Part shown: one piece after another, positions 5,568-35,457 of the stretch
How the letters are laid out: each line of letters opens with the position of its first letter
Numbering within the stretch: position 1 is the first letter of the stretch
Source of the DNA: an uncultured virus (IMG/VR IMGVR_UViG_2061766007_000680)
Taxonomy: Duplodnaviria > Heunggongvirae > Uroviricota > Caudoviricetes
Direction: 5' to 3' (one strand)
Length of the DNA stretch: 35,460 nucleotides
Virus record (IMG/VR): IMGVR_UViG_2061766007_000680
Translations under genes and position numbers: made by a program
Notes under the pieces: model-generated
Told to the model about the DNA's origin: nothing
Database searches by the model: none
The model's input: only the letters and a program-made list of their open reading frames with translations

Positions 5568-6152
5568 TTATTTAAAACTATTATTATATTCCATTAGTAA
5601 TGACTCAATGTTAGATGGTAAACCACTGCATTTTAATCTCCACTTATACATGAGTTCCATGTTCAATCTAAGTGGGCTTATAACCTTTTCATTTTTTAGC
5701 ACTTGTATTGCAAGGAATACGGTTCTATCTGACAGACCATACCATCCATCGGTTTGTACAAAATGAAATAGTTGCTCTTCGAGCATATCGATATCATCGT
5801 CTATAATGACGTATGATTCTACCTCGTCTTCGTGTGCATCAAGCCATCTTTGTATTTCGTCGCCTCTCGCTGAACCCATGTGGTCAGTAACGTCGATAAT
5901 AGATTTAATGAAAAGCGAATCTTCGGTTATTTCTTTGGTTTTGCGCTCGAAGAATCCTCTGAAATCTCTTTCAATGAACTCTTCGGCGTTTCTACAGCCA
6001 ACGGACCAAGATGAGGACACAACAATTTTAGCATCAGTTGCTTTTATTATATCCTCCAGTAGTTTCACCTTTTGAGGGTCTACGTTGTAATGAGAGTACG
6101 TAGTTGCAAGGACCCCATCTATGTCAAGAAAAATTATTCTATTTTTTTCCAT
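5568..6152 (-). CDS. HAD-superfamily phosphatase, Swiss-Army-Knife RNA-repair type (HAD_SAK_2-like)
   Basis: IIFLDIDGVL, KIVVSSSW, RGDEIQRWL, YVIIDDDIDM. Confidence 0.85.
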   Translation of the reverse strand: MEKNRIIFLDIDGVLATTYSHYNVDPQKVKLLEDIIKATDAKIVVSSSWSVGCRNAEEFIERDFRGFFERKTKEITEDSLFIKSIIDVTDHMGSARGDEIQRWLDAHEDEVESYVIIDDDIDMLEEQLFHFVQTDGWYGLSDRTVFLAIQVLKNEKVISPLRLNMELMYKWRLKCSGLPSNIESLLMEYNNSFK

Positions 6153-7208: not shown

Positions 7209-7625
7209 TTATTTTCCATTGTCATCAAATGTCCAATAGCCATACACACACCTATCTGGTCCTGGTTCAAAGGTATCGTTTACAACTCCGTCAATAACTG
7301 TAGTTAAATGGTGCCCCATCTGACACACAAGTTTGCCCCTTACTGGAAGTTCTCCTTCTCTTAGGTGAGTTGTGCATCCAGTGCCAATACCCATTGTCGG
7401 GTGCCATTCTCCACCTAAATTTTTGAGGGCTACTTTTGAATATTTCTTTTTTACACCATTTCGCGGCGTTTCTCCAGTTAACTCCTTTAGGTAGTTATAA
7501 ACTTCCTTGTAGTCTTTTCCTGTTACAATACTTATTGCCCTGGTTACGCAATCTCTAACGTCTTTAGCCTTGTAGTATTGCGAACGGCCTCCGTCGTTAT
7601 ATTTAAATGGTAATGGTTTATTCAT
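7209..7625 (-). CDS. Conserved phage protein, possible Cys-His-Asp papain-like fold
   Basis: YNDGGR...DCVTRAI...HLTTVIDG...DTF. Confidence 0.65.
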   Translation of the reverse strand: MNKPLPFKYNDGGRSQYYKAKDVRDCVTRAISIVTGKDYKEVYNYLKELTGETPRNGVKKKYSKVALKNLGGEWHPTMGIGTGCTTHLREGELPVRGKLVCQMGHHLTTVIDGVVNDTFEPGPDRCVYGYWTFDDNGK

Positions 7626-8074
7626 TATGCTAAATTTTTAGATACTACTTGTGCAACTAACTTACCATCTGCACTAGGAAGAGAACTCTTTATCATTTTG
7701 ATAATGATACCCATATTTTTTTTAACAGGTTCAATACCATCTTGTCCAATTACATCGTTGAAACACTTCAAAATATCTTCCTCCGTTGCTTCTTCTGGCA
7801 AAAACTCTTTGATAATTGTGATTTGATCTGCTTCTGCATATGCCAAATCATCTCGTTTAGCAGCAAAATACTGTTCCATCGATTCTTGGCGTTGTTTAAC
7901 CATTTTCTTTAGGACATTAATCTCATCAGTCTCTGTCATCTCTTTACCAGCATTCTCTTTTGCTGTTTGCCAATTCATAAATGCGGTTTTAATTGCACGA
8001 TATGTTTCTGTTCGTACAGAATTATGGGCCTTCATGGACTCCATAATCAAGTTATTTAAAATGTCTTTAATCAT
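7625..8074 (-). CDS. yqeY: GatB/YqeY domain protein
   Basis: MKA...RAIK...KMVKQRQESMEQY...RDDL...E...FLP...K.MG...ADGKLVA signature. Confidence 0.9.
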   Translation of the reverse strand: MIKDILNNLIMESMKAHNSVRTETYRAIKTAFMNWQTAKENAGKEMTETDEINVLKKMVKQRQESMEQYFAAKRDDLAYAEADQITIIKEFLPEEATEEDILKCFNDVIGQDGIEPVKKNMGIIIKMIKSSLPSADGKLVAQVVSKNLA

Positions 8075-8543: not shown

Positions 8544-8960
8544 TTACAATATTATTTCTTTATCAATTTCAAATTCTTTTAAAAGGTGTTGTAATTTATG
8601 CACGTAGCCTACATCAGTAAGCCAATCAGAAGTATAACCACAGTCACCACCATCGCTACAGTTATCCACTAATTCAAACCCATTTTTGCATACTTCGATC
8701 TGAAATCCATCGCCGATAGCATATGTAGTTACATATCCTACGCGTTTATCCCACGTCCATTTCTTAAAACCGTTCTTCTCTAACAACTTAACAGTAATTG
8801 GGATTGGTTCAATGTCTTCAATACTAATCTCTTCTGATTCGTATTCAGCCTCTTTGGTAAAAATACTATGGCCAAGAATACCATCAATTTGAACATTATT
8901 AAGATATTCTGAGTTTTTTACATGTACCCAATCACCTCTCATTAATTCACTCGTCTTCAT
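8544..8960 (-). CDS. YopX-like Bacteroidota phage family protein (paralog 1)
   Basis: MKTSELMRGDWV...IEPIPIT.KLLEKNGF...YVHKLQH. True start is probably 8960. Confidence 0.75.
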   Translation of the reverse strand: MKTSELMRGDWVHVKNSEYLNNVQIDGILGHSIFTKEAEYESEEISIEDIEPIPITVKLLEKNGFKKWTWDKRVGYVTTYAIGDGFQIEVCKNGFELVDNCSDGGDCGYTSDWLTDVGYVHKLQHLLKEFEIDKEIIL

Positions 8961-8979
8961 AATCTTTATTGTGTCATAA

Positions 8980-9648
8980 TCAAAATTCATTTTTAGTCCA
9001 TGTTTCTCTCCAATGTTTATCTGTCTGCACATGATTTGCACGGACAAATTTTGCAACATTTTTTTGAAAATCCTTATAATAAAAACCTTTTACATTACGA
9101 ACGACAAAGCCTTCAATATCCTGTCCTTGTTTTGACAGTTCCTCTTTCTTTTCTTCAAACGCCTTCATTATTTTATCTTTGTCATATATACCTCTGTATA
9201 TAACAGGAACATGTTTCAACCCAAAGGCTTCACACAAATTAACAACTCCATCCCATGAAGAAAATACATTATATACATTATCTTCATCTTCTTCCTTATA
9301 TGCATATGCAAATACTTGGAAAGTATCTTCTATGTTGTCAAACTTGTATCCTATAGAATGTTTTGCATAAAGATTCTCCCCTATAATTCTTTCATCATCT
9401 TGAAGTAGATAACAAAAATCCCACACTTTTGATTTCAACCAATTCTGCCATTCATAACTATTTCCATCCAATGAACGTGCATGAATATAACCGTCAGGAT
9501 AGATAGTTGTATTTTCACCATCCATTTTAATAGTTACCACGACTTCCATTCCGTCAAACTGTGAATCGTCTGGTAGTGTCTTATCATCATCTGTTTTAGA
9601 TAGTGAATAAGGCAAGTGATATGTTCTTGGATATTTAATTCGTTCCAT
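8980..9648 (-). CDS. ATP-dependent RNA ligase (Rnl2-like)
   Basis: KYPRTYHLP, motif I TIKMDGEN, HARS, IGEN, EGFVVR, AKFVRANHVQTDKHW. Confidence 0.9.
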   Translation of the reverse strand: MERIKYPRTYHLPYSLSKTDDDKTLPDDSQFDGMEVVVTIKMDGENTTIYPDGYIHARSLDGNSYEWQNWLKSKVWDFCYLLQDDERIIGENLYAKHSIGYKFDNIEDTFQVFAYAYKEEDEDNVYNVFSSWDGVVNLCEAFGLKHVPVIYRGIYDKDKIMKAFEEKKEELSKQGQDIEGFVVRNVKGFYYKDFQKNVAKFVRANHVQTDKHWRETWTKNEF

Positions 9649-9649
9649 A

Positions 9650-9994
9650 TTACACAAACTCTCCAAAGGCGTTTAATTCATCGTTAAATAAAAACTCTAA
9701 GTATTCCTTTCGTGTCATAAATTCGCCATATTCCAACTCATCTGGTTTTTTAAGTCTATCTTTAGGGATACCCATGTATTCTATACATTGTCTTGGTGTT
9801 ATAATACCTTTCTCGGCATCTAAATGGTGTTTAGAACAGAGGGCGGCTCCGTTTGAAAGATCATATCCTCCGTCAGACCATAAGTGTCTATTCATGATGT
9901 GATGTGCATCAACAGCATCACAATTACACCCAGGTACACAACACTTACCATTAGTAACGCCAAAAACCGCTTTTTTAAATTCTTCTCGCGTCAT
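9650..9994 (-). CDS. HNH endonuclease-like protein coupled to the RNA ligase
   Basis: CCVPGC...DAHHI...NGAALCSKHH. Confidence 0.8.
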   Translation of the reverse strand: MTREEFKKAVFGVTNGKCCVPGCNCDAVDAHHIMNRHLWSDGGYDLSNGAALCSKHHLDAEKGIITPRQCIEYMGIPKDRLKKPDELEYGEFMTRKEYLEFLFNDELNAFGEFV

Positions 9995-11132: not shown

Positions 11133-11172
11133 GTTGCAAAGATACAACATTTTTTTCATATATAAAAATTTT
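11133..11172 (-). promoter_or_regulatory. Host-RNAP (Bacteroidota) promoter cassette, copy 1
   Basis: On -: AAAATTTTTATATATGAAAAAAATGTTGTATCTTTGCAAC, containing TATCTTTG. Identical to 12814-12853. Confidence 0.8.
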
Positions 11173-11729: not shown

Positions 11730-12176
11730 TCATACTATAATCTCCTTTTCAATTTTACATGATTTTATTGCATGTTGTAACTCATGGACATAATATTCTT
11801 TTCCACCGATTGTGGACTGTGATGAGGAAAGTACCTCTTTTTTAGTTACGTGCTCAACGTTGAATCTTAGAATAGCACCTTTTTTCTCTTCCGCAAACTC
11901 AACTTTAATGCTGTAGAAGTCGTGCTCGTTTTCATCGACGAAGCAAGAGAAATAGTTTTCTTGTTGATGTAGACCGTTCTTCAGCAAGATTTCAGGTGTA
12001 ATAGGAATTGGGGTGATAAATTCCTCCAACCAATCCGTATTGAACTCAACTTCGTGAATTCCGTGTTCTGTTTGGTCATACAACTTAATAACACCTTTCT
12101 TTTTAAGGACTGAAACCTGATAATTTGAGCCGTTTATACTAACCCAATCATCAATCATTAATTCACTCGTCTTCAT
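11730..12176 (-). CDS. YopX-like Bacteroidota phage family protein (paralog 2)
   Basis: MKTSELMIDDWV...ITPIPITPEILLKNG...YVHELQH. True start is probably 12176. Confidence 0.75.
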   Translation of the reverse strand: MKTSELMIDDWVSINGSNYQVSVLKKKGVIKLYDQTEHGIHEVEFNTDWLEEFITPIPITPEILLKNGLHQQENYFSCFVDENEHDFYSIKVEFAEEKKGAILRFNVEHVTKKEVLSSSQSTIGGKEYYVHELQHAIKSCKIEKEIIV

Positions 12177-12190
12177 AATTTTTATTGTGT

Positions 12191-12307
12191 CTAATTTTGC
12201 GATTTGCATTTTTCAATTGGGCCTTCTCCCATGCGCTTTACTTGCTCTCTGGTCTCTTGAGTAACATACTTGTCGAAGACCTCCTGCATAAAATTAGGTT
12301 TACTCAT
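12191..12307 (-). CDS. Small hypothetical protein (38 aa)
   Basis: MSKPNFMQEVFDKYVTQETREQVKRMGEGPIEKCKSQN; ends TAG ACA CAA TAA. Confidence 0.45.
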   Translation of the reverse strand: MSKPNFMQEVFDKYVTQETREQVKRMGEGPIEKCKSQN

Positions 12308-12813: not shown

Positions 12814-12853
12814 GTTGCAAAGATACAACATTTTTTTCATATATAAAAATTTT
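12814..12853 (-). promoter_or_regulatory. Host-RNAP promoter cassette, copy 2
   Basis: 40-bp perfect repeat of 11133-11172. Confidence 0.8.
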
Positions 12854-12897
12854 CGGGACAAAAATGTGATTTTTCTTCATTTTTTAGACCCGAAAAT
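12850..12897 (-). terminator. Imperfect hairpin, probable terminator of the purA-like operon
   Basis: TTTTCGGG...CCCGAAAA outer stem with inner AAAAATG/CATTTTT. Confidence 0.5.
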
Positions 12898-12903
12898 GTA
12901 ATC

Positions 12904-13983
12904 TTATTTAATTAACGGCGAATCATAGATGTTAACTTTACCGAACATTTCCTTAAACGCCACTTCTCGATCCATTTCATCACAGTGCGTTAATTCTATC
13001 TCAAACTTTGCACCTTTTGCATCTTCAAGTATTCTGTTTTTTAACCAATTAATATCTAATAGTCCATATCTAAAATTACCCTGAAATTCATTATAATGGT
13101 TTGTTCTGTCTTCTTTAACATCTTTTGATAAACTTCCCCAACTTATTAATTGGTGTTGTAAGTGCCCATCACCATGTCTAGTAAGATATGGTCTTGTTAC
13201 GTAATGGGCCGTAACATCATCTATTTTTAAATCTTTTAGTAATAGTAGAGAATATAAAATACCAGTATTAGAAGGAGTAGCGTCATATGTATCCTTTCCT
13301 GTATCGCAAAGCAATAAGCCTTGTCCATTTTCAAAAATTAAATTATCATGCGTAAGTTCTGACAGTTCTTTTACTTCAGTATGTTCAGCCATGAACTTAC
13401 AGTCTTCGATAAAATGAAGTTTCAATATATCAGAATCCCATATGTCAATAAACTCGCTTGGGATGCTGATCATATTCTCATAATATTTTTTTACTTTATC
13501 AAGATAAACTTGATTGTGTGGGTATCCCATTTTAACAAAATCGTCAAATGGTAACGCCGTATCTGTAGTGGCCCATCGTCTTACTGTGTTCCAGATTCCC
13601 ATTCCACATGATGCGTGTCTCCCTTTTGCTTGTTCCATTAGCATATTAGCCATAGAGTCATAAGGCGTTGACCATCTGCAGATCTTATCTCTATAAATGT
13701 GTTTAGGTTTGATAATTAGAGTATTATACTCTTTGACAAACTGCATTGGGTTAAGGATAAAAAAGCGAGAATAATAACTATCCGCGCCATGATAAGTTCC
13801 TGAACCAAAATGCTGAAAGGTCATACTCCCGTCTTCCGTCAGAATGGAGTGCCCTCGCTGGGCACCACCATTCGTCAGGATATTAAGGACAGAACCATCG
13901 GCATGTTTAGTTTGGGTTGCAACTACAGTTCCCTTACCTTCATCACCATAGTTGGCACCAATTACTATACTCGCTTTTCTCAT
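12904..13983 (-). CDS. Divergent adenylosuccinate synthetase-like ligase (short form)
   Basis: GANYGDEGKG, GGAQRGHS, FENGQGLLL, TPSNTG, YLTRHGDG, LTHCD. The aspartate-binding TTGR loop is absent. Confidence 0.88.
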   Translation of the reverse strand: MRKASIVIGANYGDEGKGTVVATQTKHADGSVLNILTNGGAQRGHSILTEDGSMTFQHFGSGTYHGADSYYSRFFILNPMQFVKEYNTLIIKPKHIYRDKICRWSTPYDSMANMLMEQAKGRHASCGMGIWNTVRRWATTDTALPFDDFVKMGYPHNQVYLDKVKKYYENMISIPSEFIDIWDSDILKLHFIEDCKFMAEHTEVKELSELTHDNLIFENGQGLLLCDTGKDTYDATPSNTGILYSLLLLKDLKIDDVTAHYVTRPYLTRHGDGHLQHQLISWGSLSKDVKEDRTNHYNEFQGNFRYGLLDINWLKNRILEDAKGAKFEIELTHCDEMDREVAFKEMFGKVNIYDSPLIK

Positions 13984-13985
13984 TT

Positions 13986-14858
13986 TTACCAGGTAATGTC
14001 TCCATCCTCGGTAATAAGCGTTGCAGCCTCAGGTGCTACTGGACTTCCTTGAATGGATTCTGTAATACAATCCTCAATCGTTTGAGCAAGATTGTTGATA
14101 GTAGAAACCTTCAATCTTTCTCCCAAAATTTGACCAAAACTCTTCTCGATATCATGTTCATAACTGCGATAGCAATCACGAGGACTATCCACTGCAATAT
14201 GGAAAATATCAAATTTTTCAGAGGCTTGGCGATACAATTCTGGTGTCTCAACATTTGCTTGCTCTGTTACATTAGCCGACTCGTTTAGACGTTTGAATGG
14301 GAGGTATGGATTAAGAGGCTCGTCACCCATTGTGATAATGATACCCTTTCTACCTTGTTTATCAAAACAGTCCAACTTAGTGTGCTTTAGACCCATATAC
14401 CATGCAGCAGTATAACTCTCGAAAGTGTTTCCACCGCCACCATGCTCCATATAAATCTTATCGAGTGCTTCGGCAATACGCACGTCACTCTCGAATTGAC
14501 TCATTTGGATTGGTGCTTCATCATAGGCGAGATCACCAATACCCATTACGCAGAACTCAATATCCTTGAATTTCTTGTAAAGGTTTGTCATGATAACGCC
14601 CAACGCTGCAGCAGTTTCGCTACAAGCCTCACCCATAGACCCAGTGACGTCTAATGCGAGAATCACTGGGATTGTGTTTGGGTGTTCGTCGCTGTTTGCG
14701 CATTCACGAATGGTGAACTTTTGTGGGTCCAAAGATTCATCTAGACGTCTAGAGACAAATGTTTGTCCCGATACACGACCAGTCGAATAATCATAATCTC
14801 TACCAAGAGATTTACTGTATGTGCAATAACTTGCTGTCGTAAATGAACCTGCTCCCAT
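13986..14858 (-). CDS. vWA domain protein
   Basis: MIDAS-like ILALDVTGSMG, GIGD, GGGGNTFESY, IITMGDE. Confidence 0.88.
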   Translation of the reverse strand: MGAGSFTTASYCTYSKSLGRDYDYSTGRVSGQTFVSRRLDESLDPQKFTIRECANSDEHPNTIPVILALDVTGSMGEACSETAAALGVIMTNLYKKFKDIEFCVMGIGDLAYDEAPIQMSQFESDVRIAEALDKIYMEHGGGGNTFESYTAAWYMGLKHTKLDCFDKQGRKGIIITMGDEPLNPYLPFKRLNESANVTEQANVETPELYRQASEKFDIFHIAVDSPRDCYRSYEHDIEKSFGQILGERLKVSTINNLAQTIEDCITESIQGSPVAPEAATLITEDGDITW

Positions 14859-14860
14859 AA

Positions 14861-15469
14861 TTACTTGCCCTCCTCGTTTTCAGTTTCAGCATTTTCACCT
14901 TCATCAATCTCGAAGTCAAACATGCCATCGAATGGGTTAAAAGACTTGTCGCCGCCGAAGAATAGAGAGTAAGCCATCATCTGGCCGAGGCCGTTATTGC
15001 TTCCGTTGTTACCGCCACCCAAAAACTGAGACATCATCATCATCTTCATGATGTTACCAAGACCCTTTCCCTTCTTGAAGGAATTTCCAAACATGGAAAT
15101 GATCTTTCCGTAGAAGTAAGTGCTACCCATGAATACGTGACGCTCAGGAACGATAGTCTTCTCTTCGGCACTCTCGTAGTCGATAACAGTGATCTTCTTC
15201 TTGTCAACCTTTGTTACACATTTTGGCTTACTGCCAACCAACAGAATGTCTCCAACCTCAGCCTTAGTGGTTGGGATTACGAAGAACATTTCGTCACCGA
15301 TATTGAAGCAGAAATTCGTTACATTGGTGAGAGTTTCCTTCTCAACATTGTAAGTCTTGTAACTACTTCCACACTTTACGGCAATGTTGCCGTTTGCTGT
15401 AAGACGGCACATACCTGGGCCTACCTTACCAAATAACCCGTTAAGGGAATTCTGTACATTCTCAAACAT
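14861..15469 (-). CDS. Conserved phage protein with Met/Gly-rich C-terminal tail
   Basis: Beta-rich N-terminal part; IMKMMMMSQFLGGGNNG...QMMAYSLF tail. 2-nt spacing to the vWA gene. Confidence 0.85.
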   Translation of the reverse strand: MFENVQNSLNGLFGKVGPGMCRLTANGNIAVKCGSSYKTYNVEKETLTNVTNFCFNIGDEMFFVIPTTKAEVGDILLVGSKPKCVTKVDKKKITVIDYESAEEKTIVPERHVFMGSTYFYGKIISMFGNSFKKGKGLGNIMKMMMMSQFLGGGNNGSNNGLGQMMAYSLFFGGDKSFNPFDGMFDFEIDEGENAETENEEGK

Positions 15470-15496
15470 AATTATAAAACAATTTTAATTATTAAT

Positions 15497-16126
15497 TTAT
15501 TTATTAAACTTTTCGAGTTTATCTATGAAATCTTTCGGGTTAATACCCGCATGTATTGTTGTATTTCCGTCGTACATCCACGCAACTGCTTGCTTGTTTA
15601 CGTCTTCAACTGAAAATGGTGAATTATATCCATAATCCCAAGGGAATCGGCAGTCGGCATCGAAAATTAGTGTCAGAATCTCAATCTTATGTGATTTAGT
15701 AACAAAACGAAGACCATCCTTTTCTTGTACCTCGTCTGTTATATCATCATAAGGAGCACCTGCGTTGCAGTCCAGCGGTGCGTCGTTCCAATCATCACCC
15801 CATTGTTCTGATAGTTGGAGTGGAGTAAAGTACGCCTTATATCCCCCTTTCTCTAACTCTGGGTTCGGATAGTCAACCATTTTCATTCTGTCCCAGAATG
15901 GATTGTCATGTGCTGGATTGTATGAGTAATAATGGTTTTCTTTCACGCATTTTTCTCTATAGGTCTCGTATTCCTCGTGCCATTTTTTATACTCATCGCT
16001 ATCAAGAAGTTTTTTTGTTTCCTCATCCCAATCACATAGTGTTTGCGAAACAGTGTCGATATAACACAACTTGTAATTTGAGTAATCGTTACTCAAAATA
16101 TCTTCTTTTGTAATTTCCTTATACAT
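15497..16126 (-). CDS. Conserved phage hypothetical protein
   Basis: AYFT..L.EQWGDDWNDAP..CNAG.PY...NSPFSVEDVN..AVAW. Confidence 0.8.
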   Translation of the reverse strand: MYKEITKEDILSNDYSNYKLCYIDTVSQTLCDWDEETKKLLDSDEYKKWHEEYETYREKCVKENHYYSYNPAHDNPFWDRMKMVDYPNPELEKGGYKAYFTPLQLSEQWGDDWNDAPLDCNAGAPYDDITDEVQEKDGLRFVTKSHKIEILTLIFDADCRFPWDYGYNSPFSVEDVNKQAVAWMYDGNTTIHAGINPKDFIDKLEKFNK

Positions 16127-17910: not shown

Positions 17911-17935
17911 AAAAGTGTCATTTTCTGACACTTTT
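17911..17935 (-). terminator. Rho-independent terminator
   Basis: AAAAGTGTCA-ttttc-TGACACTTTT perfect stem with a long U-tail on -. Confidence 0.8.
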
Positions 17936-19095
17936 CATTGTATACTGAAACCGATTTTCTTTTTTTCTTTGGTTTCACTGCCATTATCCTTCTCGTAGTT
18001 AAATATATCAGCAAGTGTCATGCCAACTTCAGATTCGTAGTCAATCTTAAGAGCCTTGAACAGAGCATTGGTCTTTTCTATAGACAAATCCTTAAACTCA
18101 TAACGATAAACCAAACGGCCCTTCCTCAACAAAGCACTATCTACCTTAGCAATATCCTCGTTGAATGTTGCAATAATCTTAATATTAAAGATATCAGACA
18201 AAAGTCCATCGCACATATTAAGGATGTTGGAGATACCAGTTGATTGATTACCCTGATTTCGTGCAGCAACAAGGTTTTCGCAATCCTCGATTACAAGCAC
18301 ACAACCTTTAATCTCAGTCAAGAATGCAATAAAAGATGGGTCCGTCAGTGCTGACGCCATTTCTTTTGTGAGGTAAACAAATCTACGGCCACTGTTATTG
18401 ATCAAGTGACGTATGTAGGTTGTTTTACCAGTGCCTTTTACACCATTGAGAATAACAAGACCACTAGTATCTTCTTCGTCAATGAAATCTTTAATTATTT
18501 TGTCAGCATTTTTGAAGTCGTCATTATAATGTTTATCAATGTTAACCTTTATTTGTTTGATATCTGAATCCATCAATGTATAGCCACCTCCTGGTTTTGA
18601 TAAAATAAGAGAAATTTGTTTACGTTGTTCGGGTGGAGGTGTTTTTACAATACTTTTAATATATAATTTATACAACTCCTTACCTTTTTCCTCATCCTGG
18701 CAATATACAATAAGGCCAGTATCGCTAGAGGTATCAATATAAGCAATTACCTTTTGCTCTTCTAAAACTACAGTTAAATATATGCTGAATAGGTTTAAAT
18801 TCTCATCGCAGTGTTTATTTAGATTAAATGCTGCGTTTGGATAGGTATCCTTAACTAAATTAATGAATTTGTCTAAGTTCAGACCAACGGTATATTCGTT
18901 ATATTTCTTCTCAAACTTATCTGAGAAAGATGTAAAATTAAGTTTGTTCGGAAAACTTTGAAACATATATACGTATAACTTAAGCGGGTTAATACCCTCT
19001 GCGTCCGAATATGAACTAATATCATTCACATTGATCAATTTGTTTACATTGCGGTAAACGTTACTTGTAATTTTTTGTTTTTTGTTCACTCTCAT
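17935..19095 (-). CDS. AAA+ ATPase (single module)
   Basis: GVKGTGKT, LVIEDCE, LNMCDGL, ATFN, DSALLRKGRL; C-terminal KKIGF. Confidence 0.9.
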   Translation of the reverse strand: MRVNKKQKITSNVYRNVNKLINVNDISSYSDAEGINPLKLYVYMFQSFPNKLNFTSFSDKFEKKYNEYTVGLNLDKFINLVKDTYPNAAFNLNKHCDENLNLFSIYLTVVLEEQKVIAYIDTSSDTGLIVYCQDEEKGKELYKLYIKSIVKTPPPEQRKQISLILSKPGGGYTLMDSDIKQIKVNIDKHYNDDFKNADKIIKDFIDEEDTSGLVILNGVKGTGKTTYIRHLINNSGRRFVYLTKEMASALTDPSFIAFLTEIKGCVLVIEDCENLVAARNQGNQSTGISNILNMCDGLLSDIFNIKIIATFNEDIAKVDSALLRKGRLVYRYEFKDLSIEKTNALFKALKIDYESEVGMTLADIFNYEKDNGSETKEKKKIGFSIQ

Positions 19096-32778: not shown

Positions 32779-35457
32779 TTATTGTATTTTTATCTCATTA
32801 TTTTCAACTGTTGCATTAAATGCATAACTATCATAACCGTTATCGATTAAGAAGTCTGTTATCTTGTTTTCAATATTATCTCTAATTGTCCTTATAACTG
32901 GTCTTGCACCATATTCTTTTTCTTTCTTAATAGAATCTAACATAGTCTCAATCACATCATTGTCGTAAGAAATGAAACAACCAATCTTTTTAAGCCTCTC
33001 TTGTAATTTGTTCATTTCTAACCTGACAATTTGCCTTAGGTTATCATCGTCGAGGTTGTTGAAGAATATTATCTCATCGAGACGGTTTAAGAACTCTGGT
33101 GGGAACTTATCTTTAATCTCTTTGTTGATGATATTACGTTTTACACTATCATCATCCTTTGATTCAAAACCAATAGCCTTGTGCTGGCCTGCGTTTTTTG
33201 TACCAACATTTGATGTTAGAATAATAATTGTATTCTTGAAATCAACCTTCTGGCCAGTGTTATCAGTTAAGAAACCTTCATCAAATACCTGAAGGAATAA
33301 GTTGTAGATCTCCTCAGTTGCTTTCTCAATTTCGTCAATAAGAAGCACGGCGTATTTATTGTTTTTAATAGACTCCGTTAAAAGACCACCCTCGTTATAT
33401 CCAACATAACCCGCAGAAGCACCGATTAATTTATTTACCGATGTTTTGTCATTATACTCTGACATATCGAAACGAATAAGGTATTTCTCATCACCAAAAA
33501 TTTCCTTTGCTAATGTTTTTGCCAGAAGCGTTTTACCAGTACCAGTTTGGCCAACAAACAAGAAGCAACCCATTGGCCTGTTGTTTTGGTGCAATCCAAT
33601 CTTGTTTCTCTTTATTGCGCGAGATACCACGTCAATAGCCTCGTCTTGACCGACAATGACATCCTTTAGTTTATTATCGATATCTTTTAACGCTCTTTTC
33701 TCTGTCGTTTTCAGTTTTCCGATTGGAATATTAGTATGTTGAGAAATTGTTGTATACAAATCTTCCTCGGTAACCTCAATTTTCTCTTTTGATCTAATTT
33801 CTTCTTCAAGTTGGGCCAGGTCAGTTCTTATGTCTCGCTCATGCATGCCATATTCCATAACTTTATCAAAGTCATCCTTCTTTGAGGCTTCTTCTATTTC
33901 CGTTTTAACTTCATTTAACAGTTTATAACGCCGTTTTATATTTTTCATTAGTTCGCTGTTCATTTTCTTGTATGAACCTAATTCATCCATTACATCAATT
34001 GCTGATGATGGAAGCGTCTTTTCTGTTATATATCTTTTTGCCAGATCAACACAAAGCCTAAGAATTGAGTCAGAGTAACTTACACAATGGAAATCTTCGT
34101 AGTATTTTCTGTTATTAACCAGAATGTCATAAGTTTCTTCATCGTTCAGAGGATCAACAGTAATTTTTTGAAGTTTCTTTGATATACTTGGATTGGAATC
34201 ACACATCGATTTGTAACCCTTAAAATTACTAGTAGCAACTACTTGCACATCACCGTTTGCAAATACTTCAGAAATTACACCACCAGCGTCAAAGTCATTC
34301 TTTGTCTTCTCTGCAAATAGACTATCGATGTCGTCAATGAATAATATAGCATTTTTATTCTCTTTTAATGCTTTGATCATCCCAACCATACGCTCCTCGA
34401 ACATGCCTCTAAGAGTCGTTCCAGCAAGCATTTCTGCTGAGTTGAATTTCCAAATTTCTTTATCTTTAAAATATAGTGGTGCTTCCCCTTTTAATATTTT
34501 TTGAAGTAGCCCAATGACAATTTGTGTCTTACCTACACCAATATCACCAACTAATATGGCATTATTGGTTTTTCTTCTTCCCAATATTCTAAATATTTCA
34601 TTTATTTCATTTTCTCTGCCAATTAATTCGTCGAATTTTCCGTTCTTGACTTGTTCATTTAAACTAGTGCAAAATGGTATACTTTTTGAATTTTGTTTTT
34701 GTACTTTTTGTTGTAGGCCTTGCTGTATACCTAATATATTTAGTATTTCATCTTGTGGTAATTTTCCACCACCAATAATTAAAGCATTAGTATTTCCATT
34801 TGACATTTTATCAATTATCTTGATATTTTTTTCCACAGAAGAAAAAGAAGAAAACATTTTATCAAAAGCCTCTTTAAGGTCGGATTTTTGATCATTTTTA
34901 TTTTCGTCAATTTTTGTTTTTTGGCCGATATTCTCTTTTTCAGTAGAATTAATTGCTTCTCTAATATTTTTTGAAATTGATAGCAGAACTTTATATGTTA
35001 CGCCATATTCTCTAAATAAATCTGATATTTCTGAATGATTACCAGTGTTTTCAGCATCTCTTAAAATAGACAATAATACATGATCGGTGTTAATTAATGA
35101 CGAGTTTGTTTCTCTAACTTCATTTAATGCTTCTTTAAAATAATCTCTTAATTCTTTTGAAATTTCTGGCTTCCCAATTGGTGTAGATATTGGTTCATTA
35201 ATTGTTTTTTCGTTTTCCAATTCAACAAGCCTGTCGTGTATTTTATATATCATTTCCGATATAAGATAACTACTAAGAGCTGTATATAGCATTGATTCTT
35301 GTTTTTCTAATGCACTATATAAAAAAATGTATGGAGATATTTCACTAAATTTCATATCCTCATGTACACTATCAATGATATAATCTATGATATATGTAAG
35401 TTCTTTTGAAAAATATTTATCTATTACTTCTGAAAACCCCCACTTAGCATTTTCCAT
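32779..35457 (-). CDS. clpC: ClpC-like ATP-dependent Clp ATPase
   Basis: Clp N-domain (TDHVLLSIL), NBD1 GDIGVGKT, coiled-coil middle domain, NBD2 GQTGTGKT / RFDMSEY / GYVGY / IDEIEKA, IGF loop, PEFLNRLD, GARP. The start is 3 nt from the window edge. Confidence 0.93.
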   Translation of the reverse strand: MENAKWGFSEVIDKYFSKELTYIIDYIIDSVHEDMKFSEISPYIFLYSALEKQESMLYTALSSYLISEMIYKIHDRLVELENEKTINEPISTPIGKPEISKELRDYFKEALNEVRETNSSLINTDHVLLSILRDAENTGNHSEISDLFREYGVTYKVLLSISKNIREAINSTEKENIGQKTKIDENKNDQKSDLKEAFDKMFSSFSSVEKNIKIIDKMSNGNTNALIIGGGKLPQDEILNILGIQQGLQQKVQKQNSKSIPFCTSLNEQVKNGKFDELIGRENEINEIFRILGRRKTNNAILVGDIGVGKTQIVIGLLQKILKGEAPLYFKDKEIWKFNSAEMLAGTTLRGMFEERMVGMIKALKENKNAILFIDDIDSLFAEKTKNDFDAGGVISEVFANGDVQVVATSNFKGYKSMCDSNPSISKKLQKITVDPLNDEETYDILVNNRKYYEDFHCVSYSDSILRLCVDLAKRYITEKTLPSSAIDVMDELGSYKKMNSELMKNIKRRYKLLNEVKTEIEEASKKDDFDKVMEYGMHERDIRTDLAQLEEEIRSKEKIEVTEEDLYTTISQHTNIPIGKLKTTEKRALKDIDNKLKDVIVGQDEAIDVVSRAIKRNKIGLHQNNRPMGCFLFVGQTGTGKTLLAKTLAKEIFGDEKYLIRFDMSEYNDKTSVNKLIGASAGYVGYNEGGLLTESIKNNKYAVLLIDEIEKATEEIYNLFLQVFDEGFLTDNTGQKVDFKNTIIILTSNVGTKNAGQHKAIGFESKDDDSVKRNIINKEIKDKFPPEFLNRLDEIIFFNNLDDDNLRQIVRLEMNKLQERLKKIGCFISYDNDVIETMLDSIKKEKEYGARPVIRTIRDNIENKITDFLIDNGYDSYAFNATVENNEIKIQ

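Follow-up and report, generated by a model that had tools for sequence, protein, structure and literature searches.

The motifs of adenylosuccinate synthetase, PurA (EC 6.3.4.4; PF00709, TIGR00184; structures 1ADE, 3HID and 4M9D), have been assigned to catalysis and to the binding of inosine monophosphate (IMP), aspartate and GTP in the literature on the E. coli enzyme, where the TTGRxRR loop holds the carboxylates of aspartate. PurZ and PurZ0 (NF038379; 6FM1, 7ODX, 7VF6), the succino-amino-deoxyadenylate synthases of Z-genome phages, are short, phage-borne members of the same superfamily and share their PHROG label with the enzyme studied here. Proteins with a von Willebrand factor A (vWA) domain and a metal ion-dependent adhesion site (MIDAS) act as adaptors in quite different settings, among them the integrin beta I domain, chelatase subunits of the BchD/CobT type, BatB and TFIIH p44, and their usual partner is an AAA+ ATPase or a kinase/phosphatase pair. 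Here we analyse 35,460 nucleotides (nt) of DNA from an uncultured virus of the Caudoviricetes (IMG/VR record IMGVR_UViG_2061766007_000680), called the window throughout, and in it a cassette of three minus-strand genes that brings a ligase of the PurA superfamily together with a vWA-fold protein and a protein rich in Met and Gly. An earlier note, made from the letters of this DNA alone, had proposed that the three genes form a module and that the ligase, its substrate site rebuilt, belongs with neither PurA nor PurZ. It suggested further that the ligase may join another amino acid or a protein side chain to a purine nucleotide, with the vWA protein recognising the target and the Met-rich protein serving as scaffold or substrate, perhaps in an anti-defence system.

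In our reading the three genes are transcribed together as a single unit in a large rumen phage; the vWA protein is the obligate genomic partner of the ligase. Judged from its motifs, the ligase is a catalytically intact enzyme of the PurA superfamily, and, going by the bacterial carriers, it is not the housekeeping PurA. PurA and PurZ/PurZ0 are its closest known families, and it departs from PurA in four defining features and from PurZ/PurZ0 in all four that were tested. We give a probability of roughly 0.5 to the reading that the cassette specifies a purine-nucleotide ligase complex that would not use aspartate: the C6 carbonyl would be activated by a nucleoside triphosphate (NTP), the vWA protein would be a subunit, the third protein would have a chaperone or regulatory role, and the complex would be used for takeover or counter-defence.

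The AlphaFold2 (AF2) model of the ligase, built on an 89-sequence alignment, has the PurA fold with a mean predicted local distance difference test score (pLDDT) of 95.3. Foldseek puts bacterial PurA at the top of its matches (template modelling (TM) score 0.70–0.74), with PurZ0 (7vf6) at 0.67 and PurZ (7odx, 6fm1 and others) at 0.53–0.68. The Pfam model PF00709 (Adenylsucc_synt) gives 67.2 bits (E 1.5e-18), its cut-off being 27, and aligns over profile positions 1–312 of 416, and phrog_1211, labelled '2-aminooxy adenylosuccinate synthetase', matches at 1e-34. Searched in the other direction, the profile of the ligase family finds E. coli-type PurA at about 1e-30, though within residues 5–285 only, archaeal PurA at 4e-14 and PurZ0 (7vf6) at 4e-4, and gives no match to PurZ. 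The curated PurA equivalogs are far from satisfied: the ligase scores 45.9 bits where NF002223 asks for 402 and 34.6 where TIGR00184 asks for 395.55. As to the NCBIfam PurZ model NF038379 (cut-off 300 bits), the window ligase has no match to it at E <= 0.01, and bacterial relatives of the ligase reach 44–45 bits through their N-terminus only.

The pattern of what is kept and what is changed was read from an alignment of 89 family members with five canonical PurA and five PurZ sequences. Common to PurA and the ligase family are the P-loop GDEGKG with its Asp, the catalytic His, the Gln of FE(G/N)xQG and the TR.G motif. The window ligase reads GDEGKG, GGAQRGH and FENGQG at the first three, and its D14, H45 and Q221 are invariant in the 89 sequences. 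Family-wide differences from PurA are NAGH to Q(R/A)GH, GTTGRGI to GSCGxGI, TRVG to TRHG and TKLD to TH.D, the Lys of TKLD being replaced by His or Cys, and the TTGRxRR loop has given way to an invariant N..N..QG..R pattern. The window ligase itself has GGAQRGH for GGxNAGH, ASCGMGI for GTTGRGI, TNHYNEFQGNFRY (with EFQGNFR) in place of the TTGRxRR loop, and THCD for TKLD. About 27 residues past THCD the protein stops; the five canonical PurA run on for about 90, including the S.GP.R segment, and this stretch of about 90 C-terminal residues is missing from the whole clade of the window ligase. Every motif quoted in the earlier note, the missing C-terminal segment included, was thus found again in the sequence, and its statement that PurZ has Ser at the position of the P-loop Asp agrees with the GS[TE][GA]KG present in 5/5 fetched PurZ, where the window has GDEGKG.

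The family is large. The PurA-like enzyme alone accounts for 1125 representative clusters (50% identity) at E <= 1e-30, and each of the three cassette proteins has thousands of homologues, so the cassette is not a chance arrangement. Three ligase family members (P0391, P0392 and P0394) bear an intein (PF14890, in two of them PF14528 as well). In P0394, the one intein protein that was read, the intein interrupts the catalytic GGAQAGH motif and thereby marks it as a conserved site.

A quick maximum-likelihood tree of 40 rows (30 module enzymes, 5 canonical PurA and 5 PurZ, with PurZ0 and archaeal PurA left out) places each group on one side of a branch, with support by the Shimodaira–Hasegawa-like approximate likelihood ratio test (SH-aLRT) of 96 for the module enzymes, 99 for canonical PurA and 99 for PurZ. 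The window ligase falls in the third clade, outside canonical PurA and PurZ; its nearest neighbours are bacterial PurA, and PurZ stands apart. Together with scores below the PurA equivalog cut-offs and the missing PurZ match, this bears out the proposal that the enzyme is neither of the two.

Two readings would nevertheless keep it within known biochemistry. If it were a true adenylosuccinate synthetase, the phage would carry an auxiliary metabolic gene boosting AMP during infection, and the upstream genes would be unrelated or regulatory. Such a view has in its favour the PurA fold, the intact P-loop with catalytic Asp, His and Gln, the position of bacterial PurA as clade neighbours, and the annotations of depositors, who label relatives of the ligase adenylosuccinate synthetase. 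It has to face scores of 34.6–45.9 bits against equivalog cut-offs of 395–402, an aspartate loop, a TKLD Lys and a C-terminal segment that are altered or gone, and a vWA adjacency that is obligate and for which a fusion is known. Moreover, in 5/5 bacterial genomes a separate canonical purA (498–599 bits) is present besides the module, whose enzymes reach 105–128 bits there against the cut-off of 395.55. We consider this reading very unlikely.

Still further from our expectation, and in our view extremely improbable, is a PurZ-type enzyme making the precursor of 2-aminoadenine (Z) for a Z-base genome. The phrog_1211 label suggests it, at 1e-34, and the same label stands on the database records of relatives. 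Against this label stand the absence of a match to the NCBIfam PurZ model, the Asp where 5/5 PurZ have Ser, and the separate PurZ clade (SH-aLRT 99). The carriers differ as well. Searching phages by tblastn with the window ligase gave 219 records (Mycobacterium 201, Rhizobium 10, Vibrio 6, others 2), and with the PurZ of phiVC8 204 records, most often from Arthrobacter (105), followed by Vibrio (38), Microbacterium (18) and Acinetobacter (10); the two sets differ in composition as compared by genus counts, not by intersection. In 3/5 PurZ loci a DNA polymerase I gene adjoins PurZ, with a dATP triphosphohydrolase (phiVC8) or an NTP pyrophosphohydrolase (Ochrobactrum phage) nearby, a neighbourhood not seen around the window ligase, and no feature of the five loci is annotated as vWA (annotations only; a vWA profile scan was not made).

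What sets the ligase apart from PurA, besides its motifs, is that it always adjoins a vWA gene. Loci were fetched by alignment of the vWA protein alone, which confirmed 340 of 586 viral candidates and 588 of 599 candidates on bacterial contigs (one genome per species), and the best 80 of each set were used. In 157 of the 160 loci the vWA gene is followed, on its own strand, by a PurA-like open reading frame (ORF), with a gap of <= 300 nt in 150; the three loci without one end 21, 47 and 186 nt past the vWA gene. The loci are not all independent: grouped at 75% identity, their vWA proteins fall into 83 clusters, and a few of the contigs had already been found with the ligase. Among the close viral loci found with the ligase, 7/7 keep the order Met-rich, vWA, PurA-like, and only one (L005) shares flanking genes with the window. 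The relatives nearest to the cassette sit on contigs of 91 to 381 kb. The pair is also present in isolated phages, namely Rhizobium phage RHph_Y65, Vibrio phage pv27 and Mycobacterium phage I3, and altogether in 201 Mycobacterium phage records. A metagenomic protein of 652 aa (P0393; 4 member sequences, 1 contig) fuses vWA and PurA-like parts in the same order, its vWA part being 37% identical to that of the window over 273 residues. In a search of longer family proteins for fusions, only this protein and the intein-bearing forms were found. The co-occurrence foreseen in the earlier note therefore holds for the pair, and the triad does belong to phages as had been supposed; what has to be given up is the notion of a module confined to them, because the vWA and PurA-like pair is common on bacterial contigs.

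The vWA assignment of gene 2, likewise made in the earlier note, is supported by fold and not by sequence libraries. Pfam VWA models matched 0/82 family members at E <= 0.01, a profile search of the Protein Data Bank (PDB) with the family gave no relevant match, and the only label from PHROG is phrog_2971 (2.1e-49), whose function is unassigned. The AF2 model has a pLDDT of 93.1, falling to 57–68 in the last 20 residues. VIA-align superposes 191 residues on an integrin beta chain (Z 15.2, root-mean-square deviation 2.9; model residues 60–271), and its next rows are vWA domains at Z 11–15 over model residues 58–272. Foldseek returned 297 matches at E <= 0.001 with probability 1.00, and among those listed all are vWA-type domains. 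A MIDAS-like D70-x-T72-x-S74 together with D179 is invariant in 82 sequences, which accounts for the first and last elements of the MIDAS pattern DxSxS ... T ... D. In the same sequences G73, M75, D109, Q118, Q121, E123, D125, G141, G142, N144, E147, S148, Y149, W153, D163 and H220 are invariant too, and so is a GGGGN..ESY motif. The domain is preceded by a family-specific N-terminal extension of about 57 residues that begins MGxGx(W/F), and it is followed by a flexible C-terminal tail that ends in ...I(S/T)W in the phage-type form and in ...V.RF in the bacterial-type form. The invariance of G2 is partly due to the pattern used to pick starts, and 2/167 loci (L028 and L034) begin MSKG. With the known vWA adaptors, then, gene 2 shares the Rossmann-like fold (Z 12–15), and its family has an invariant DxTxS...D motif of a putative metal site; it differs from them in escaping the Pfam VWA models, in its own N-terminal extension and terminal peptides, and in having a PurA-type ligase as partner. 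On the one-genome-per-species bacterial contigs, the 588 confirmed relatives show how widely this protein occurs.

Short contigs resembling parts of the vWA and Met-rich genes were seen in two bovine-gut metatranscriptome runs (X19 and X20), at <99% and mostly <95% identity, one of them (215 nt) spanning the junction of the two genes. These contigs come from relatives, carry-over of DNA is possible, and no transcription is shown by them; gaps in their cover of the stretch carry no meaning.

The third gene differs between lineages. In the window it encodes a protein with a conserved N-terminal domain of about 125 aa, a low-complexity stretch rich in G and M, a (M/L)F(D/E)GMFDF motif and an acidic tail. 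It matches no family in Pfam, PHROG, NCBIfam or PADLOC, its best PDB match is no better than E 0.33, and in the ESM Atlas it meets viral hypothetical clusters only. Relatives are plentiful, with 2264 of 2351 candidates at E <= 0.001. By hhalign the protein aligns with CDS0142 of Vibrio phage pv27 at a probability of 95.2% (E 2.6e-8, 168 columns) and with gp016 of the Rhizobium phage at 85% (E 6e-6, 36 N-terminal columns), so that gp016 is probably homologous as well. A narrow hidden Markov model (HMM) of close Met-rich relatives was not significant against the Vibrio and Rhizobium proteins (best E 0.043, in a small ORF set). On the strength of the hhalign homologies, the full triad also occurs in the Vibrio and Rhizobium phages and thus covers phages whose hosts differ widely.

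The distribution of the Met-rich protein follows two types of locus. We call phage-type the 122 loci L004–L125, whose vWA protein is at least 44% identical to that of the window, and bacterial-type the 45 more distant ones, L126–L170; within the former, L091–L125 are contigs of metagenome-assembled genomes labelled bacteria, which may be binned phage DNA. The Met-rich HMM matches upstream of vWA in 117/122 phage-type loci (of the five misses, four come without upstream sequence and one, L118, carries a different gene at that place) and in 0/45 bacterial-type loci. In 29/45 of the latter a gene for a protein of about 350 aa occupies the same position. It has weak Pfam matches to DnaJ (E 1.5e-4 to 2.2e-3) with the consensus wHPDr, that is an intact HPD motif, and a kinase-like body, which in gp270 of Mycobacterium phage I3 matches Pkinase at 8.7e-9. 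In the bacterial consensus the Asp of HRD and that of DFG are both missing, in I3 gp270 only that of HRD, and a kinase-like body without catalytic Asp joined to a J-domain makes the protein a J-domain pseudokinase. The Met-rich protein is accordingly a member of the module in large-phage lineages, as had been proposed, but a lineage-specific one, replaced by the pseudokinase in bacteria and mycobacteriophages. Its Met/Gly/Phe-rich tail with FDGMFDF may resemble the G/F region of J-proteins.

How might the three proteins work together? We propose that the ligase would phosphorylate a purine (IMP-like) mononucleotide at its C6 carbonyl with the help of an NTP, and that an amine would then displace the phosphate. 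The replaced aspartate loop, the changed Lys of TKLD and the loss of the C-terminal base-binding segment argue that this amine would not be free aspartate and that the NTP need not be GTP. Probably the amine would be neutral or cationic: ammonia, the amine of an amino acid or peptide, or that of a protein. The vWA protein would be a stoichiometric subunit whose metal site and conserved end peptides serve to present or gate either the second substrate or a target protein, and the Met/Gly-rich protein may couple the complex to chaperones or regulate it. The product would be a non-canonical, N6-substituted nucleotide of the adenine type, either free or bound to a protein, which the infecting phage would make to aid takeover or counter-defence. 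Some members of the family may also have the cassette wired to ADP-ribose/NAD+ (nicotinamide adenine dinucleotide) stress, a link unseen in the window.

A more specific possibility, which we find quite unlikely, is protein nucleotidylation, in which no free metabolite would be made and the purine C6 would instead be joined to an amine of a protein. That amine could be the vWA N-terminus once Met is cleaved off, or a Lys of a host or phage target held at the MIDAS. The reaction would be aided by Hsp70-linked accessories (the J-domain pseudokinase or the Met/Gly-rich protein) and in part of the family be switched by ADP-ribose. The conserved vWA N-terminus MGxGx(W/F) with the aromatic C-terminal end would make sense in this scheme, as would the intact HPD in the J-domain of the bacterial form and the natural fusion. 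PMC9503650 portrays the vWA domain of conflict systems as a Mg2+-dependent chaperone that binds peptides, which fits as well. The loci beginning MSKG speak against a universal G2. We also know of no PurA-family enzyme that acts on proteins; if true, the reading would amount to a new kind of protein nucleotidylation.

The genomic surroundings of the module were compared by clustering neighbours across 167 loci, with 1 to 5 members per cluster annotated with Pfam. A gene for a regulator combining Nudix and NrtR_WHD domains is present in 37/167 loci (19 phage-type, 18 bacterial-type); other neighbours are isochorismatase (14), NAPRTase/NAMPT (9) and Pribosyltran (8) families. The palindrome TGTTATT-N(1-8)-AATAACA, which lies between the Nudix regulator and pseudokinase genes where these adjoin, matches in 8/185 loci, in 7 of these 8 just upstream of the pseudokinase gene; both proteobacterial and Ruminococcus contigs are among them. 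In RHph_Y65 the module is a few genes away from a phosphoribosyltransferase-like gene and a gene for an NMN (nicotinamide mononucleotide) adenylyltransferase/NUDIX protein. Among five related viral records the two most complete by CheckV (G007, 76%, and G009, 100%) each encode a protein of the NAPRTase family as well as a full-length Hsp70, both at a distance of tens of kb from the triad; the three less complete ones have no match to either. Phage genes of NAD+ salvage and reconstitution (NadV/NadM; PMC9503650) and NrtR-regulated NAD operons are thus among the closest known systems, by virtue of these neighbours in part of the loci. None of the three cassette proteins, however, belongs to those families, and the window has no such neighbour. 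One further neighbour stands by itself: in a Competibacter locus (L137, 7201–8400) a gene for a pyridoxal phosphate (PLP)-dependent Orn/DAP/Arg decarboxylase directly follows the PurA-like gene, and this family is absent from the 22 largest neighbour clusters (at least 7 genes each).

These surroundings would suit a direct aminase, an enzyme that would convert IMP, or a hypoxanthine nucleotide or one with another carbonyl such as a deaminated or deamidated NAD precursor, with ammonia and an NTP into the amino form and so restore adenylate or NAD+ pools destroyed by host defences. Most of the basic residues that bind carboxylates are lost from the ligase while the catalytic core is kept, and NAD-salvage genes with NrtR-like regulators next to part of the modules, the neighbours in RHph_Y65 and the NAPRTase-family protein of G007 and G009 all point the same way. 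We nonetheless rate this possibility as unlikely. It leaves the obligatory vWA protein and the third protein unexplained, no ammonia channel or glutaminase partner is seen, no NAD gene is near the cassette in the window, and the NAD association is limited to a minority of loci. Nor, to our knowledge, has any NAD-related reaction been described for an enzyme of the PurA type.

The same regulators could be read as parts of a bacterial immune or abortive-infection module, in which an NrtR-like repressor senses ADP-ribose and the PurA-like protein is an effector making a toxic or signalling nucleotide; large phages would then carry the module to compete with rival phages or as a decoy. Stand-alone three-gene operons do occur in varied bacterial contexts, some of them with the Nudix-wHTH regulator gene and the palindrome. 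The available part of PMC9503650 presents Nudix-HTH factors as ADP-ribose sensors of conflict systems, and PurA is unmentioned in it (0 occurrences). On the other side, lytic large phages carry the module very often, the bacterial loci that were inspected have housekeeping-like neighbours and not defence islands, and no PADLOC match was obtained, all of which makes an immune role unlikely. A Cas6b match in PADLOC (E 0.0015) was treated as chance.

Several of our results weigh against the favoured reading of a non-aspartate ligase complex used for takeover or counter-defence. Its proposed chemistry is drawn from motif conservation and from the residue roles known for E. coli PurA. One Arg of the aspartate loop is still present in most members, which makes an acidic amine possible. 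Many of the 160 loci are close relatives and hence not independent, and the vWA/PurA-like fusion is a single cluster on one contig. As for the suggested role in conflict, PADLOC gave no match to a defence model, and the NAD link covers a minority of loci only. No NAD-salvage or NrtR-like Pfam family is found among the 42 ORFs of the window, the palindrome has 0 matches there, and the window neighbours of the triad are RNA-repair and nucleotide genes.

A PurA-type enzyme that had given up aspartate and was tied to an obligate vWA protein would imply either a non-textbook reaction of purine nucleotides or a protein modification. Its range extends over gut and rumen jumbo phages, phages of Vibrio and Rhizobium, about 200 Mycobacterium phages and many bacterial phyla. 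Open literature searches gave no description of the module, only genome announcements with the label 'PurA-like', and in tables of a paper on Vi01-like phages an adenylosuccinate synthase and a vWA protein appear as two distinct genes. Solving the function would correct thousands of 'adenylosuccinate synthetase' or 'PurZ' annotations and could reveal a new branch of the conflict between phage and host over nucleotides or NAD. Culturable carriers are at hand in the cluster C mycobacteriophages, in Vibrio phage pv27 with its relatives, and in Rhizobium phage RHph_Y65.

The layout of the cassette is given below. The three genes lie head to tail, with 2 nt between a stop codon and the ATG that follows, so that the tight spacing reported in the earlier note agrees with the ORF coordinates.

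Table 1. Features of the cassette (positions in the window)
Feature	Position	Strand	Basis or remark
Gene 1, Met/Gly-rich protein, 202 aa	14861..15469	-	ORF call
Gene 2, vWA-fold protein, MIDAS-like site, 290 aa	13986..14858	-	ORF call, AF2 model, Foldseek, VIA-align
Gene 3, PurA-superfamily ligase, 359 aa	12904..13983	-	ORF call, PF00709, phrog_1211, AF2 model
Hairpin	12849..12897	-	starts 7 nt past gene 3 stop codon

The closing hairpin claimed in the earlier note is there as a stem-loop with a U-run: inside an outer stem of 9 bp (AUUUUCGGG / CCCGAAAAU) lies an A/U stem of 7 bp, and UUUUUAUAU comes after the structure. Its folding energy of -14.4 kcal/mol is less convincing (z only -2.24, with 5/200 shuffles as good), and a consensus terminator scan does not list it among its sites. 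It likely marks the end of the transcription unit; that it acts as the terminator is plausible, if weakly so. Directly past it, at 12829–12814, lies a 16-mer, GTTGTATCTTTGCAAC, with an exact second copy at 11148–11133 on the minus strand, and both copies sit immediately upstream of a gene start. The 16-mer contains TAxxTTTG, which we take to be the Bacteroidota -7 promoter element, and the gene after the hairpin therefore seems to have its own promoter. In four runs many unrelated contigs match about 12816–12853 alone, with both flanks diverging, which indicates that the GTTGTATCTTTGCAAC element is widespread.

Among sequencing runs, only bovine gut metagenomes contain the full stretch, and they may be where it comes from. 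Overall the window is phage-like in character and rich in AT, with a G+C content (GC) of 0.24–0.43 and its maximum at the triad. Over 14001–16000, which takes in the genes for the vWA and Met-rich proteins and the one next to them, GC is 0.40–0.43, against about 0.24–0.38 elsewhere in the window; this rise could come from amino-acid composition or from foreign origin. The PurA-like gene is directly flanked by the vWA gene and by a gene without assigned function, and an HD-domain gene lies 8 kb from it. Among the other genes are those for an RNA ligase, a HAD 'Swiss-army-knife' RNA-repair phosphatase, HD and calcineurin-type phosphoesterases, a dUTPase, a LAGLIDADG endonuclease, a 1383-aa protein with Ig domains and a ClpB-like AAA+ protein. 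A classical AAA ATPase of 386 aa (17935–19095, minus strand; PF00004 at 4.7e-11) is encoded 2.5 kb upstream of the triad and, being kept only in L005 among the 7 close loci, is placed outside the cassette. The ClpB/Hsp104-like protein, 892 aa with a double AAA+ architecture, is encoded at 32779–35457 on the minus strand (AAA_2 at 1.8e-58, ClpB_D2-small).

The LAGLIDADG homing-endonuclease gene (PF14528; 6134–7132, minus strand) sits between HAD_SAK_2 (5568–6152) and YqeY (7625–8074). Paralogues of phrog_10066, a family whose function is unassigned, occur twice, at 11730–12209 and 8544–9059 (minus strand). The RNA ligase is divided between two overlapping minus-strand ORFs matching phrog_24030, 9650–9994 (positions 4–83) and 8980–9666 (positions 132–332), which could reflect a frameshift, a split gene or an assembly error.

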